A stretch of 64,000 bases of DNA from Yuukianura sp. NJ FZ-2021. Its lineage: Eukaryota. A program made the position numbers and the translations under genes. The stretch is taken from the NCBI GenBank assembly GCA_046563655.1, contig CM102288.1, forward strand, positions 4,154,001 to 4,218,000, in the 5' to 3' direction. The notes beneath the pieces are model-generated. The model was not told the DNA's origin and did no database searches. It saw nothing but the letters and a program-made list of their open reading frames with translations. Shown here piece by piece: positions 21,411-30,800 of this stretch (the first letter of the stretch is position 1; every line of letters begins with the position of its first letter).

Positions 21411-22338
21411 ATGGGACGACTGGACATTCAGCAGACTAGTGGCTTCTGGACAGCGTCTGGCATAATGGCAGTCTCTCATTTCGTACTAATTTTTACAATA
21501 GCAATTACAACCACGGAAGGACAGCGATTTTCTGGTAACTTGTAAAAGTTTAAAAGTTACATTTAAAATTGCATTTTAAAAATTTCGTGTTTCTTGACTT
21601 TGTTTTGTTTGTTAGCAAATGTCGTCCCGTCTAATTCCAGACCGGAATTTATCTCCAGTGTTTTTGTGGACGGTCCGTCGCTTCAAGTGGGCCAAGAAGA
21701 TGGAGAAGATCGAGGAAGCTTCACAAGACGGCTGCGCATGAGTGAATCTTGTCTGGCATGTCTCTGCGCAGCATCCTCGGACTGTGACCTGAGCATGCGT
21801 TGTGTTGGCCAAGGTCAATACTGTGGTCCATTTCTCATTTCCAAACCCTATTGGCTCGATGCTGGAAGTCCAGTCATCTTGGGAGATTCCGCTGAACGAC
21901 CAGAGTGTAAATACTTTTCAATTTTTAAATTTTAACACATTTTTTTAGAAACTTATTTGTGACTTATTTTTAGCCTTCCAAGATTGTGCTCTGGATCCAA
22001 TTTGCTCAGCCCAGACAGTGCGAAAATACATGACGAGATTCCAAAAAGTAAGAAAAGATGCTCAATTTTTTGAAATTGTCTTTTTTCCTTGTGTTTTGAT
22101 ATTTTTGTTGATTTTGTAGGATTGCAATGGTGATGGAGTGGTGACCTGTGATGACCTCGCCCTCATTCACTTGATGGGTCCATATGGATCTGAATGTGGA
22201 AACCCCTCAGCTCTGCGTAGTGGCTACTTTCAAAAATTCCAAAAGTGTTGGAACTCCGTCCTTCGCTTGTCCTCTGCTGTGTCGTCATTTCCAGCGTCCA
22301 CATCCTTGGACGGTGACGACGGCCAAAGATTGACCTAA
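21411..22338 (+). CDS. Invertebrate-type (i-type/destabilase) lysozyme-like secreted protein (4 exons; alternative ATG 21465)
   Basis: Signal-like first exon; CLACLC...C...C...CGPFLISKPYWLDAG, FQDCALDPICSAQTVRKYM, DCNGDGVVTCDD..IH.MGP match the arthropod i-type pattern. Confidence 0.85.
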
Positions 22339-23123
22339 AGCTTACCCGAACATACAAAATGGAGCCATCTCTCTCCCACCGAAATCAGCGATTGAGCTTA
22401 ATAAAGCCTTGAATATGTCCTTGTGTGTTTTGCAAGAATGTGTTTGGTGATATTGTTTGTGGTGCGTTTGATGAATTGTTTGTTGGAGCGTAGTGCGTGT
22501 CCATGGGGATTTGGAGAAAGTGAAGAGAAAGGAGATTGATGGGAATTGAGAAGGCGGCAGACCAAATAATCAAATACACTTCCTTAGCCGCTCCTTTCTC
22601 CACTTTCACCCACTTCCTAGTTACAACTTCCTCAACAACAACTTCATCTAAAGGCAATCAGACCAATAACAAAATTGCCCATACCAAAATTGTCAAATGT
22701 GTAACAGCAAAAGGCAAAAGTTTTTTTCAACCGATTTTTTCAATTTTCCACACTTAAAAATTCTACACGCCCGAAGTTTTTTGCATTTCTGTTTCAGTAT
22801 TTCCATATTTCTTAGTTGTTAGATATAAAATTGTAGATCTTTTTGCATGTTGATCTGAAATGTTTAGACTGTTTTGCTAAGAAGTGTAGCTTTGAATGTG
22901 TGGAGTGGCTATAGCCTTGCATAGCCGTGTCGATCGATAGTCCCAGACTTTCTCTGCTGCTACACGTGGTTTTGTGGCCTTTCATTTTTAAATTTTTGAA
23001 GAGAAAGTGGTCCAGTGAGTAGAGTGGAGTGATGAAGTCGTGTCGAGGTCAGAGGTCAGAGTGACATGGCTTAGGGTGACATGAGTCCATGTCCGGAGTG
23101 AAGAGGCCTCCTCACCTGGAGCC

Positions 23124-26100
23124 ATGGAGGTGGAAGACCTCATTCACATCAACCCTCCCACCACTGAAAACCTCCTCAGGGTCATCCACAGACGATTCAA
23201 ACGGGACATTGTCCATGTCAGTTTTTCAAAATTACTTCAAAATTGAACTATTTTTCACAATTTTAGTTTTGATTTTAGACTCGTCTTGGACCGAGGCATT
23301 TACTGGCGCTGAATCCGTACCGAGCGCTGCTTCCGAGCGCTGATTCGAGTCCTAGTCTGGAAAACTTTGTGGACGAAATGCGGCAGGGTTTGAGCGAAGG
23401 ACTGGAAAACAGGCAACTGCTGCTGCCACTCGGGGAGTCTGGAAGTGGCAAATCAACAGCGTTTCTGACAGCGCTCGAGACGCTGGCGACCTTTGGAAGC
23501 AACGACAAGGAACAACGACTGCTTCGCGGAATACATCTACTCAAAAGTACTGTTTTGAAAAAGCTGTTTCAACAATTTTTAGAACACGGGTTTTAAAAAG
23601 TGTTGGAATTTTAGTTTTAGGAAATGCGAGGACACAAGGGAACGAAGACGCGTCGAAGTTTGTTCTTCTGGTGGATCTTGAATTGGATTTTAGGGGCCAA
23701 GTGATGACATATGCCATCAACACATGTAAATCATTTTCAAAATTTTATTTTCAAAATTTCATTTTGAAAAAGTCATTTTCAAAAGGTTTTCAAAATGGTC
23801 GTGAATTTTGAAATGATTGGATAATTTCAGATATGATAGAGAAGGAACTTGTAACCAGAAGAAGTGGAGCCAACTTTCATGTGTTTTATGGACTCCTCGC
23901 AGGAGCAGATCCACCATTGCTCAGTTCGTTTTTTAAATCAAATTTTGAACAAAATTTTGAAAAAGTTTGTTGAAAAAGTTACATTAACTTTGATAATTGA
24001 ATTTGCAGAATCACTTCGCCTTTGTCGTTCTGCCGATTCGTATGGACTACTCAGCCCGCTTCCAACTCCCACAAACGCACAAATAGGGAAAGAAACGTTT
24101 GAACAAATCCGAGTAAGCAGGAGTGGACTTTTTAAAAAAATCTTTTAAAAATTTCAAAATTTTGATTTTTGAAAAGTTATGCCTGAGTGTCCACGGTCTG
24201 GATGAAAAGGCCTTCTTCCAAATTATCGCCTTCATTCTCAAAATGGGGAACATTTTCTTCATTCCCGTCACGCGCATGGACGGAACGGCTGGACTGCAAC
24301 TGGAACCAAGTTGGTTGAATTTTTAACCAAGTTTTAACATTTTAACTTAATTAATTACAATATGAACTAATTTTTAACACATTTTAACATTACCAGGGAC
24401 AGAGTTTGCGGAATCAGGGGATTTAGTAGGGGTGGAGTCCACTGTACTTGAGGCTGCTTTGCTCTACGAAGATGGCGGGGTGATCCGTGATCCAATTGGA
24501 GCCGCCAGCATCAGAGATTCGCTTCTGCGCACACTCTACGCACGACTCTTCCTCTTCATCTCTACGCAGATATCACCAGGATCAATGGTAAAACCTTTGA
24601 CCTAACCAGGCTAAGCTAATCATAATCAGAATCCATAACTTTAACATAAAATTTCAAAATTTCATGTTTAGAGCGGGAATTCCTGCCTGAGTTTGCTGGA
24701 CTTTCCGGGATTTCAGAGTCTAGAAAGGAATTCCTTTGAGGAATTGCTGTTGAATCTGATTGGAGAGAAAATCCAGGAAGTGCTTGTGGACTGGGAGTTG
24801 AAGGAGAGGCAGGAAGAGTGGCTCAGGGAGGGATTCAAGTGGGTCAAGGTCGACACCAGGTCAAACCCACCCTCAGTTCTCCAGCTCCTCGAACAAGTCA
24901 GTTTTCATTTTTCAAAATTTACTTTTGGAATTCCAATGTTTTTTTGAAATTTAGAACGGCCCACTTTGTACCAGTAAGAGTGATGAAGAGATTTTAGAGT
25001 TGATTCTGGACAAGAGTCCTGCTGCCTCTCGCCTTGGTTCCGACCAGTTCCGGATTCGTCACTTCGCGGGGACTATCACTTACCGCAGCACGAAACAAGA
25101 AACGTTTCCGGAAAAGACCGAAGTTCTTCCGAAAGCACTCACTGCCGCCATGTTCTCTTCCAGCCACCCATGGATACCACAATTCTTTCCAGAAGGTAAC
25201 TATAATTTCCAAAAATGCTACTTTTTTGACTAAGTTTTTCGAAAAACTGAACTTTTTCAATTCTTTTTTTGAAAACTTAACTCCTTTTTCTGGAATTTAG
25301 GATGTCGGGGTCACTTGGGGGGTCGTGCGTTGACTCCGTTTGCGCATCTTCACTTGCTGAGCCACAAGTTACGCTCTCTGTCTGCCGTTGCATCGTACAC
25401 TGTACACTGTATCAAAGCCAATGAGCTGAAGGTGGGTGGGGTGTTCGAGGGGGCGTTGGTGGAGCATCAGTTAAAATACCAGCGTATCATGGACACTCTG
25501 ACTGTGACAAGAGATGGGTTTCTGTTGTCACGAGACTATGACCGCTTCCTAGCCAGGTACAGACTGCTGTCACTTAGGACTTGGCCTACGTGGCGCAGTG
25601 GGGCCCGTGAAGGCGCCCATCTCATCCTCAACGACTTGTTTGTGCCAGCACATCTCTACTTCCTCGGCAGAAATCGCATTCTAATCAAAGCTCCGCTCGT
25701 AAAATATCAAATTTTCAAATTTTTTTTTTGAAAATTTGATTAGAAAGTTTCAGGAAGTGTTTGTTTTAAAAACCTTGCAGTTGAGTGATTTGGAGTCGTT
25801 TAGAAGAGAACGTTTAGACGATTTGGCCCTTTTGATTCAAAAAACGTGGAGGGGCTGGAGAGGGTTCAAGCGATTTCAGCGAATGTGCCACGCCCAAAAA
25901 CTCATTTCCAAAAACTGGAGAAAGTACAATGTAAGTTCAAATTAACAATTTTTTGAAAAATTGACTTCAATCATAAAAAAATCTCATGTTTTTGAAAATT
26001 TTTAGAAACGTCGTATACAATTTGCAGAAGCTGAGGGCAGTCGGCAGCGAATCGCTGTCGGCAAAATTCAGCGGGCCTATCTTCACTGGAAGGTGAAAAT

Positions 26101-27215
26101 TCTGAAGCTTTGAAGACCTTGAAATCAAGTTTTTTGAAATTTTGAAAATGTTGATTTTCTATTTTCAGCGTAAGTGTTTTTTGCAAGATTTGCTAAGTCG
26201 TGACCTTGCGATGTCCCCTATTGTGTGGACATGGCCTCGTCCCTCCCCTTGTCTGTGGCGTGCCAGTCAGGAGCTGGAGCGTCTGTTCCACCGCTGGCGG
26301 TGTTCGGTGTACCGCAGTCACTTTAAGGACCCCAACGAACGTAACCGATTAGGTGAAAAAGTGACGGCGTCAAATCTTCTGCGCGGGAAAAAGGCGTCTT
26401 ACCCCAGAAGTGTGTCCCATCCGTTCCTTGGAGACTATGTCCGACTCAGGGTCAACTCAGAGTGGAGGAAAATTGCCAAACAGGACGCAACTCTCGTCTT
26501 CGCTGACCTCGTCCAAAAAATTAGCTTGTCTTCTGGAAAGGTCACCCAAACTTCCAAAATTCTCCAAAAACAGGTTTCAAAATTTTGATTTTTCCTGAAA
26601 TTTTTGATTGTTCTAGACAACCCCGTACCTTTTGGCAGTGTCCACTTTTTCTCTGATGGTTTTGGATTCGAGGACATTGACATTGAAGCAGAGAATCCCT
26701 GTCCAAGAAATTACAAAGTTAAGTTTGAGTCCATACGCAGATCCCTTCATTGTCTTCCATCGAGTCACCCATGTAAGGCTCTTTTTCATGAAATTTCGAA
26801 ACTTTTTTTTGAAATTTTGAAATTTTTAGGAAATTGTGGAGGGAGAAGAGGGGGAACGCGGAGCTGAGCCGTGTACTGGCTGTCGGTTGTTTGAGGAAAG
26901 TGCTGGTAAGCGTGGTGACCTCATCCTGTCCACGCAGCATCTCGTGGAACTTGTGACCAAAGTTTACTTGATTGCCAAAAATCTGATGGGGGGCAAGGGA
27001 CCATCGGTCCACATTGGAGAGAGGTCTTCTTCTCAATTTTTTAAAAAAATGTTCAAAATTTTGAAACTGTGTTTCTGATTAGGTTTGAGTTGAATACGGG
27101 TTGTTCAGGGTCATCGTCTTCAGTTCAACTGGATTTTGTGAAAAGATCTTCGGGTGACGGGAGTGACGTGTTGAAAGTGGGACTCAAACAAGGCCACATC
27201 TCCATTTTCTTGTGA
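23124..27215 (+). CDS. Highly divergent myosin-I-like protein (shortened motor domain, IQ motifs, TH1-like tail), many small exons
   Basis: VEDLIHI, LALNPYR, P-loop GESGSGKS, GNARTQGN, NFHVFYGLLAG, LDFPGFQ, FRIRHFAG, HCIKAN, IQKTWRGW. Tail EKVTASNLLRGKKASYPRSVSHPFLGDYVRL is typical of class I TH1. Confidence 0.8.
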
Positions 27216-27840
27216 TATTCAAAAAATCCCCCGCCCCCACTTCATATTTATCTCCCCACCATCCATCTCTTACCCCTCTTTAAACAACAATCGAATTATA
27301 ACGTCGAAATATTCTCTCGGCTCAGCAATAATAAACAAAACACAAAGTGTTCTATTACTTGTCCTTTTTTTTGAAATCCTCGAAATTTTTCGAAATTTCA
27401 AATTTCGAAATCGAAAACGAAATGAACGTTTTGAATTATTATCCAAAGAGGTATGAAGTAGAAAGTAGCAATGGACAGAACTGCACAGTTGTTTCAGCAT
27501 AAATTGCGTTTTTCTGAAATTTTTGTCTCGACATGTATGGAAAGCTAGAAGAAAATTTTTGTTTTTCAATATTTTTACTTGATCAACTTTGTTTCATTTT
27601 TGCTAAAATTAGTAGACACAAAGTGCTTTTGTTTTTATAAATTACGTTTTCACAATTGAAGCTCACGAAGAGAAAATACTTTTAGAGTTTCTCCACTTTC
27701 ACTGGTTGCAAAGTGTATTTAACTGGACTAACGGAGGGTTTAATTAAAGTTAAACTTAATTATGCTCAACCTTAACAATTTGTAATTGGTGACGACTAAA
27801 CAATTGTTTCTTCAAAATTTTGAAGTTTAGTTTTGAAAAG

Positions 27841-30800
27841 TTAAGCTGGAGAGCCGGATTTGCTCATCATTCGAACAGTGTTCTTGAGAGCTTGGCGTTT
27901 ATTACAAAACCAAATTCGAATTACTTCCCGTTCGTAGCCCAGTTGGTGAGCGAGTGTTGTTATTTCAGCTCCTATGCAGAATATATTAATTAAAATATAT
28001 TATTTTATTATATATTTTATTGTTATTATATTTTATTGTTATTTGCCTGATGGGTGTGTGTTCCTCTCAAAGTGAGTGTTGAGTATTTCGAGTGCTTGTG
28101 GCGTAAAAGACGTGCGTCGCTTTCTCTTTTTCGACGGTTCCATCCCCACGAATTCGTTTAAATTTTGATTTCCAGAGCGATAGCGATCCTCTGCCTCCTT
28201 CATCCACTTTTCCAAAACTGGCTTGATCTTCTGAGCACTCTTTGGAGTAATGTCCAGTTTTTCAAACCTAAAAAGCACAAATTTTGAAATTTTTACACAT
28301 TTTTGAAAAAAGATTTTAAAAACTTTGGGTTTCAAAAGTAATCATTAACTAAAGAAGTGATTTGTGTGAGAGGTGTGGATGATTTGAGACTTTAATTTTC
28401 ACTGGCAGTGCTCTGGCTCTTTGAGTTTTTCAAAACAAAAGTACTACAAAGTTTATTTTTGAAATTTTAAGGTCAAAAGTGAAATTTTGAATGAGTTACG
28501 TACATGGATGGTTGTTGGTGGTTGGGGAGTGGTCGGTTAGTCTGAGTCAACTGCCAAGCCAGGGCACTGTACAAAATATAAGGAAACAAATCAAACACAG
28601 TGTCCGAAACTAACCTAACATTAACCTAACCTTAGCCTCACACTAGCCTAATTGACCTAATGTTTCGCAAAAGTTTAAGTTGAACTATGATCAACGTTAG
28701 GCTAAGAACGAGATATGTCATCGATTTTTCAACTACTTTTTCATTTTTTTTTAAATTTTGAAAAAAAGTTTACCTGCATATTGCGCTTTGACTGTACGCA
28801 GGCCCCTCAGTGACGGACAAAGCTTGACCCACTTGCGTCTGCGTCAAACCAAGCGACAGCCGACGCAGTTTGAACGCCTTGGCAAACTCCTTGATTTCGT
28901 CCAAATTTATTCCGTCCATCATCGTCTCGTCATCTGAAAATTTGTAATAAAAAACAACAAGTTTTAATAATTACTTAAGTCAGTTAAAACCGTCATCGCT
29001 TAAGTTAGTTTAAAATCGAAATTTTAGAAATTCTGTCTGAACTTAAACGGATTTTTTTTTTGATTTTGTGAATCATTTTTGAAAAATGATTTTTCAAAAT
29101 TATATTTTTTACCATTGTCTGAACATCTATCCAGAAAGTCCGAACATTCCTCCTCGTCTTCTTCCATGTCCAGGTCATGACCTATGCCATGACTCTGATG
29201 AGAGTGGGTTGGACTCATTTTGGACGGCGGAGGGCCAGTATATTGCGGAAAGTGACCTCCCCGGTGACCTTTGACATGACTAGACACGTTCTCATCATGG
29301 TTCCCCATACTAGCTGAAATCAGTGGAGAACTTGACCTGTCCCGCCCCCCTCCGTGACCTTGAACTCCGTTGTTCAGCGAATGACTCCGTCGACGTCTTC
29401 TGTTTCCCAAACTACTTCGCACGTTCGAGTTACGGTCAACACCAACCAACTTTTGCGAAATCTAAAAAAAGATTTAAAAAAATCACTTTCACCACTTTCT
29501 CCCAAAAATACCATACTAAGTATTGGGGAACTTTTTTAGGTTAGGTCTCAACCTACTTGTGTTTTTTTCGTGTTTAGCATGTTCTAAATTTCCATTTTTT
29601 TCTGTTTCTAAATTTTGTGCTCGATACGACCTTATTTTTTGGTTAGTTTTATAAAACAGGATTGTGTTAATTCCAAAGTGTTGTAATGCGCTGTAATCTC
29701 TAATCTGATTCCTACTAATGCTTTTCTGTGTTTTGTGAATTTTAATTTCACTCTGTTCCAAAGCACATTCCAACATGTCATTTCTTTTTAATGTTTTGGA
29801 GCTAATAGCATGCAAATGTGTCATTTAACGTCATTTCAAATACTCAAAAGAAAGCAACAAACAATAGAGAAAGTGGGCGGGAAAAAAGTAACAACGAAAG
29901 TAGAAAAAAATGAACTCATAAAAATCTGCGTTCTCGTTCCCCCTACTTAATTTCTTTTTTCGACTTAAAAATAGTTTGTCCAAGGTTTTTCAATTTCCGT
30001 TTTTCAAACAGTCAACTTTCACCTACTTTTCATTTGAAGAAAATAAAAAAGTCCCGCAACTTTGAATTTGACTAAATTTCAAAAATTGTGACTTACGAGA
30101 GAAAGGTGTTGCTGAGGAGAAAAGTCCTTGTGGTCGGTGGGTGGGGGTTGAGGGGGTGGGTTTCTCTTGGGTGGGGAGGGGGTGGTGGGGGTGATTGTTT
30201 GGAGGGGTGAGAGCGGTTGGGTGATGGGGATGGTGAGGACAGTTTGCGTGAGGAGTCCTGGAACAAAAGAGAAAGTCAAAATCAGATAATTTCCAGAGAG
30301 TAATTAACCTTAGGTTAAGTTTTCCAATACTTTTTAATTTTATGTTTTTAATTGTGGTGTCTTGTCTAAACTCGGAGAGAAAGTAGAGAGTTATTAAGAT
30401 CCTCATCGACATTTCCACTTTATGAATTGTTGATGTTCCGAGGTCACTAAGCCACTGAGTCCACTCCCTGATTATCTATCCTTAATCAACCCAAAATGTA
30501 CAAAGTCTGTTATTCGCCGTTCTCCAGAGTTACAGTTCGCTACTCAAACGGAACGAAACGACCAATTCATCACGAGAAATCGGTTCCGTCCGGTACCGAA
30601 CTTTTAAAAACGAACCAGGCTGAATTCTTTGATTTGAACTCAATTTTTCTTGGTTTTTGCGATGTCGCAAAACGGTTCTTTTTTCGGTACTTTGTACAAA
30701 TACAAAAACTGAGGAAAATGATTTCATCCAACTCCATATGATGATGAAACATCAACTTTCTCAATTTGATGAAAATTCTGAACAGCGAACTGAAAATTAA

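Follow-up and report, generated by a model that had tools for sequence, protein, structure and literature searches.

The pseudo-myosins that we found in print, namely myosin-18, Dachs (myosin-XX), and MyHd of Trypanosoma cruzi, are separate classes or orphans. In myosin-18, the loss of the salt bridge between the switch I Arg and the switch II Glu through a GFQ sequence is the stated defect, and the ATPase is negligible and actin binding weak (PMC11112018). Dachs is an arthropod myosin without detectable ATPase that binds F-actin independently of ATP and serves as a scaffold (PMC12828244), and MyHd has been termed a pseudomyosin and predicted to be non-functional (PMC7300353). The Arg-Glu bridge is critical for hydrolysis and for actin affinity (PMC11112018), and is formed by R238 and E459 in Dictyostelium myosin II, in which S237 is the metal ligand (PMC7986744). 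The equivalent pair of rat myosin-1b, counted on the sequence, is R165 and E392. Here, we analysed a myosin gene in a stretch of 64,000 nucleotides of the Yuukianura sp. NJ FZ-2021 genome (assembly GCA_046563655.1, contig CM102288.1, positions 4,154,001 to 4,218,000; the whole stretch is called the window in the following). By its motor as well as by its tail the gene is a class I myosin of the Myo95E/Myo1A-B type, and it encodes neither partner of the salt bridge.

The protein resembles Myo95E and the vertebrate myosin-1a and -1b in its layout of motor, probable IQ neck, and TH1 tail and in the clade membership of motor and tail, but it has Lys and Gln in place of Arg and Glu and a motor that is about 45-120 residues shorter. 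Vertebrate MyoIB is the closest counterpart of fly Myo95E (PMC5891590). With myosin-18A/B, which serve as the working analogy, the protein shares a switch II that includes a Pro and ends with GFQ. However, the switch I Arg is still present in myosin-18, which forms dimers and assembles together with myosin-2 (PMC11112018, PMC4914028), whereas the protein described here carries a TH1 tail and a motor that falls inside class I (in trees built without myosin-18 sequences). Because of this tail and this placement, the GFQ is convergent with that of myosin-18; the parallel itself, drawn in an earlier note on this DNA, is in print (PMC11112018). Dachs differs in that it does not bind ATP (PMC12828244), whereas the P-loop is intact here, and in having a short, unrelated tail (PMC3696060) instead of a TH1 tail and a class I placement. 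The protein belongs to neither the myosin-18 nor the Dachs class. MyHd is an orphan kinetoplastid myosin and is set beside this protein by description. The present gene has ordinary motors as relatives; it nevertheless dispensed with the two catalytic partners, and selection has preserved it since. Neither a class I pseudo-myosin nor a paper on this gene was found in the literature searched, with subscription journals outside its coverage, and curated inventories of myosin sequences could already list such a sequence.

Replacement of the active-site residues

Both partners of the salt bridge have been lost not only in the window gene but also in its ortholog L017, which was identified among the 29 loci of a metagenome scan and is covered through exon 15. 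The sites concerned are the following:

23432-23455, + strand: P-loop GESGSGKS, residues 83-90; same in L017, Lys retained, final Thr changed to Ser
23641-23664, + strand: switch I NEDASKFV, residues 130-137; same in L017
23842-23874, + strand: post-switch I region; the Arg of LEKSR (residue 164) and the Arg of ERNFH (residue 171) replaced in both orthologs
24699-24716, + strand: switch II DFPGFQ, residues 341-346; Asp, Gly, and Phe retained, Pro343 unusual
24762-24764, + strand: relay-helix Asn changed to Gly362 in both orthologs; Asn in 37 of 41 reference rows, two rows with gaps

The three motifs thus read as the earlier note had given them. The P-loop feature of active motors, GESGxGKT/S, is present, and the switch I Arg and the switch II Glu (DxxGFE) are absent. 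The Arg position is occupied by Lys135 (23656-23658) in the window and L017 alike, and the catalytic Glu by Gln346 (24714-24716), which is encoded by CAG in the window and by CAA in L017. In switch I, the first Asn and the Ser preceding the Arg position have been retained and the final Gly has become Val. Beyond the salt-bridge pair, both orthologs therefore lack the switch I Gly, the relay Asn, and the LEKSR and ERNFH Arg, the latter two being the near-invariant alignment columns 198 and 207.

These replacements were compared with 42 homologs collected by the tail exon, 41 of which were aligned (P0007, 502 residues, was dropped). The switch I Arg is found in all 35 rows that span the motif (six further rows do not span it), and the switch II GFE in all 41. 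Arg and Glu are likewise present at each of the 14 further myosin loci in the genome, the Glu of L002 being taken from the unmerged sequence because of a splice-junction artefact in the merged row. In a census of 193 proteins with 54 pattern matches, none has Gln at the switch II Glu position (52 FE, one LE, one spurious LD). Near-invariant columns, of which 50 were defined on 41 reference rows with eight test rows set aside, are altered at 9 of the 49 covered in the window and at 10 of 48 in L017. The Myo95E of the springtail Allacma fusca (P0001) has one such change in 50 columns, the three other class I loci of the genome one to two each, and P0051 seven in 50 with Arg and Glu retained. Milder motif changes were seen in the Myo95E-type proteins P0063 and P0051 (switch II GLE; switch I NDNATRCV), which keep both residues.

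Gene structure and selection

The gene is on the + strand, starts with the ATG at 23124, and encodes 982 residues without internal stops up to the stop codon ending at 27215. All 15 introns are GT-AG introns of 57-105 nucleotides with an AT content of 70-81%, and the coding sequence has 50% GC.

23124-27215, + strand: whole myosin gene, 16 coding exons, model supported by the introns of L017
23124-23216, 23279-23546, 23615-23725, 23831-23923, + strand: exons 1-4
24009-24112, 24177-24309, 24397-24587, 24672-24896, + strand: exons 5-8
24955-25195, 25301-25698, 25781-25930, 26006-26092, + strand: exons 9-12
26169-26540, 26617-26772, 26830-27023, 27083-27215, + strand: exons 13-16
27330-27335, + strand: candidate polyadenylation signal AATAAA, 115 nucleotides 3' of the stop codon

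All 14 comparable introns agree with L017 in position and phase. Exon length is the same in 11 of 15 cases, the remaining four differing by multiples of three. Alternative acceptors at 23620 and 25753 were ruled out, as the exon lengths of L017 agree with 23614 and 25780. Exon 16 lies past the end of the L017 sequence and was modelled from the window. None of the 14 introns is more conserved than the best of 50 shuffles, with one tied.

The gene is intact, and purifying selection acts on all three parts of the protein, the motor, the neck, and the tail. Over 928 codons the proteins are 78.6% identical (motor 76.7%, neck 68.2%, tail 87.8%), and the tail from residue 716 is the best-conserved part (88%). 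The proportion of synonymous differences (pS) is 0.72 and thus near saturation, and that of non-synonymous differences (pN) is 0.14. The pN/pS ratio is 0.19 for the whole protein (95% bootstrap 0.16-0.22), 0.21 for the motor (0.17-0.24), and 0.13 for the tail; with synonymous sites this saturated, the corrected dN/dS (0.065) is a rough value. Neutral decay, which the earlier note had named as fatal to its reading, is not compatible with these ratios. L017 carries NEDASKFV and DFPGFQ unchanged. In the three motifs, all 22 residues are the same although 13 of the 22 codons differ, and this includes all nine non-canonical positions; as few as 258 of 20,000 random placements of like blocks were as conserved. 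It follows that the altered site arose long ago and has been preserved since. The same substitutions, whose presence in orthologs the earlier note had proposed to test, were thus found in one of one ortholog with a readable motor. A search with the switch II exon for further orthologs returned L017's own fragment only (one match, three candidates), and a weak alignment search with switch I, which also missed L017's own frame, gave none among 34 candidates. Of the tail fragments, P0044 is a third clade member, and L018, P0043, and P0067 form the sister group (support 0.98 and 0.95).

Relationship to other class I myosins

A search with the tail exon examined 191 candidates and yielded 42 proteins, each of which combines a head with a TH1 domain. 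Forty of them carry source names, all hexapod, which marks the animal as an arthropod, and several are called myosin-Ia, -Ib, or 95E. The tail exon is 44-58% identical to these homologs and matches P0001 best, which is thus the nearest named protein. For exon 10, the best match in the PDB is myosin-Ib. In the motor tree of 47 rows (FastTree), the window groups with the Myo95E rows and P0053 (support 0.999), and in the fast-mode IQ-TREE motor tree of 20 rows the Myo95E group has a support of 99.6 in the Shimodaira-Hasegawa-like approximate likelihood ratio test (SH-aLRT). The latter tree also sets the Myo1A/B-like rows apart from L001-L003 (SH-aLRT 95.8). The tail tree of 36 rows places the window with the Myo95E rows as well (support 0.998). 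Since the separate motor and tail trees, which the earlier note had called for, agree, a motor-tail hybrid is ruled out. Accordingly, the description as a pseudo-myosin with a class I tail was right about the tail and too narrow in its wording, as the motor is of the Myo95E/Myo1A-B type too. The position of the window within the Myo95E clade is unstable, its stem branch in the motor tree is long (1.2 substitutions per site), and long-branch attraction may account for its grouping with Allacma.

The genome (98.7 Mb, 22 contigs) encodes at least 15 myosin loci and at least four TH1 loci, these and the following searches giving lower bounds. The P0001 tail matches this locus only, and the switch II exon is single-copy. 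Three other class I loci have canonical motifs and are not part of the Myo95E clade; for two of these, myosin-1c is the top match in the PDB. A second Myo95E-type gene was not found in these searches, and the idea that the gene is a spare paralog beside an intact Myo95E is unsupported.

Motor, neck, and tail

23124-25813, + strand: motor domain of the Myo95E/Myo1A-B type, residues ~1-630; PF00063 on exons 8, 9, and 10, and trees
24487-24520 (approximate), + strand: CM-loop region, ~7 residues below the profile; Allacma also 5 residues shorter
24860-25020 (approximate), + strand: helix-loop-helix and next loop, ~21 residues shorter and without the acidic DEE; Allacma also shortened
25301-25345, + strand: loop 2 region, fewer basic residues; 28 alignment columns
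25823-26092, + strand: neck with one clear IQ (residues 634-652) and weaker IQ-like stretches from residues ~661 and ~690
26169-27215, + strand: post-IQ and TH1 (PH-like) tail, residues 699-982; TH1 profile from ~26400

Of eight exons scanned with Pfam, three matched the myosin head and two TH1; a search of the ESM Atlas gave generic myosin heads. The motor span from landmark to landmark comprises 604 residues in the window, 596 in L017, 650 in Allacma, and 664-722 in five other Myo95E-type proteins. In rat myosin-1b it has about 663 residues by hand count, so that the window motor is about 9% shorter and its description as much shortened was an overstatement. We take the regions affected to be loop 1, loop 2, the CM-loop, and the helix-loop-helix, names that we assigned from the general fold of myosin motors. 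Missing are 12 residues of the N-terminal subdomain, including the PPHIY-type motif, and five of loop 1. In the 28 columns of loop 2, the number of Lys and Arg residues is four in the window, three in L017, and five to six in eight Myo95E-type rows. The position of the helix-loop-helix gap is ambiguous, as the profile set it at different places in the two orthologs. Loop 2, the helix-loop-helix, and the CM loop constitute the conserved actin interface of myosins (PMC8698748). The converter has been retained, and so, probably, has the IQ neck.

The neck can be aligned to the homologs without gaps. The first IQ matches PF00612 (E=0.0018) with 18.4 bits, below the cut-off of 20.3; exon 12 gave no match in the PF00612 scan, and the two weaker stretches were recognised by eye and alignment. 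The TH1 domain (PF06017) was found on exons 13 and 14, which, scanned singly, scored 23.3 and 27.1 bits, each below the cut-off of 31.1, and the tail matches the myosin-1c tail structure 4R8G (E=3e-6). The IQ/TH1-like tail noted earlier thus appears preserved, with Pfam scores below the cut-offs. The protein terminates after TH1, without the SH3 domain that is also missing from the tails of the subfamily (exon 16 was outside the domain scan). The tail is net basic, with 41 Lys and Arg against 29 Asp and Glu. A designed repeat protein matched by exon 14 in the PDB was judged a chance hit.

Possible function and alternative explanations

We consider it reasonably probable that the protein is a non-hydrolysing class I pseudo-myosin that acts as a passive linker between membrane and cortex or as a scaffold, in the manner of myosin-18A and Dachs, so that a Myo95E (Myo1A/B-type) ortholog would have been turned into a pseudo-myosin. 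Judging from myosin biochemistry, ATP hydrolysis without the Arg-Glu pair should be too slow for use and no power stroke would result; that there is little or no hydrolysis we expect with good confidence. Binding of Mg-nucleotide may persist, as suggested by the retained Lys89/Ser90, Asn130, Ser134, Asp341, and Gly344. The TH1 tail would dock the protein on acidic membranes, and membrane binding is likely because the tail is basic and the best-conserved part of the protein. The IQ neck would bind calmodulin-like light chains, and the head might bind F-actin weakly and largely regardless of ATP, which is the weakest step of the scheme. Force generation would instead fall to the genome's three canonical class I myosins. 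Null mutants of Myo95E in the fly are viable and show no left-right defect (PMC5891590), and because Myo95E is dispensable for viability in the fly a loss of motor activity might be affordable. The gene probably encodes a motor-dead arthropod myosin I, and would offer a natural example of how the two tasks of such a myosin, producing force and linking membranes to actin, can be uncoupled. P0001 has in common with it the short CM-loop and helix-loop-helix, the Phe after the switch II Asp, and the Gly-to-Arg change at SH2-SH1, retains Arg and Glu, and is a possible intermediate stage. Together with the canonical insects and this lineage without the catalytic residues, Allacma with short loops and an intact catalytic site would form a graded series, which lets one ask which residues a myosin needs once ATP hydrolysis stops. 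A further elaboration, which seems doubtful to us, is that a class I myosin held permanently in the ATP-bound state has become fixed in this lineage, as a non-cycling nucleotide-gated membrane-actin clutch in place of the lineage's only Myo1A/B-type motor. It is conceivable because the Mg-ATP-binding residues have been retained and the hydrolytic pair is gone, which would make the protein an evolved equivalent of the laboratory salt-bridge mutants.

Several observations weigh against such a non-hydrolysing linker. The change from Arg to Lys preserves the charge, and switch I has gained the acidic Glu131 and Asp132, which might substitute for the lost Glu. The lever-arm junction has been retained and the motor is constrained almost as strongly as the tail, both as a working motor would require. 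The Myo95E clade tolerates divergence with Arg and Glu kept (P0051, Allacma), and Allacma shows the loop shortening and the SH2-SH1 change with a canonical active site. Two of the nine altered columns of the window (529 and 580) may be alignment shifts, a single ortholog with a readable motor was found, and the first PH-like loop of the tail has one basic residue fewer in both orthologs. In addition, a strong membrane-actin tether is uncertain because loop 2, the CM-loop, and the helix-loop-helix have been shortened or have lost conserved charges. Of what the earlier note had proposed, a selected gene derived from myosin I and lacking both salt-bridge partners stands, and the strong tethering to actin is in doubt.

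The retained residues could also belong to a slow motor that still works, or to a tension sensor, whose active site has been rewired so that Lys135 together with Glu131 or Asp132 replaces the Arg-Glu pair. All P-loop residues, Asn130, Ser134, Asp341, and Gly344 are in place, the converter and the probable IQ neck are kept, and the motor's low pN/pS and the full conservation of the altered motifs are what one would expect of a site still doing something precise. Nevertheless, we regard such a motor as unlikely: no protein of the census has Gln at the switch II position, the relay Asn, the switch I Gly, and two more Arg are gone as well, and myosin-18 has negligible ATPase already with Gln and an intact Arg (PMC11112018). 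If the head had instead given up actin altogether, it might be a folded protein-interaction or nucleotide-sensing module that the TH1 tail brings to membranes, or the protein might compete with myosin-1C/1D for membrane sites and calmodulin. The reduced loop 2 charge, CM-loop length, and acidic helix-loop-helix motif would fit this, as would the strong conservation of the tail. However, both myosin-18 and Dachs retain actin binding (PMC11112018, PMC12828244), Allacma loses similar loops and has a canonical active site, and it is ambiguous where the gap in the helix-loop-helix belongs, so that we think this quite improbable. The long stem branch would fit a pseudogene in decay, an error of the gene model, or an artefact of sequencing. 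The open frame, the 14 shared introns, and the pN/pS of 0.19 at saturated pS speak against it, as does L017, an independent assembly with the same substitutions and a different Gln codon. This explanation is largely refuted and has hardly any probability left.

Neighbouring genes and other observations

P0093 (1010 residues; head, IQ, TH1) has a replaced switch I, EIPGFD as switch II, and 14 of 45 near-invariant columns altered. It is outside the Myo95E clade in motor and tail trees and is probably an independent pseudo-myosin-1, hinting at a repeated origin of class I pseudo-motors. L013 (G000:C6:888500-895000) is a myosin outside class I with an altered P-loop (GCSGSGKT) and switch I, in which Arg and Glu are present, a pattern that may be Dachs-like. 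Intron 3 of L017 (L017:1265-1357) comprises 93 nucleotides, is in frame and stop-free, and would, if retained, add 31 residues after switch I, whereas intron 3 of the window contains stops.

The region upstream of the myosin gene aligns poorly between the window and L017. Two upstream words, TCGATCGAT (22930) and CACGTGGTT (22963), were considered as a conserved promoter and rejected, as they were equalled by 80 of 1000 shuffles and 29 of 197 window tiles. A destabilase (invertebrate-type lysozyme) gene is located immediately upstream of the myosin gene, and a POU-homeodomain gene is found downstream of and convergent with it:

~21620-22340, + strand: destabilase gene (Pfam E=1.5e-12)
~28040-29460, - strand: POU-homeodomain gene

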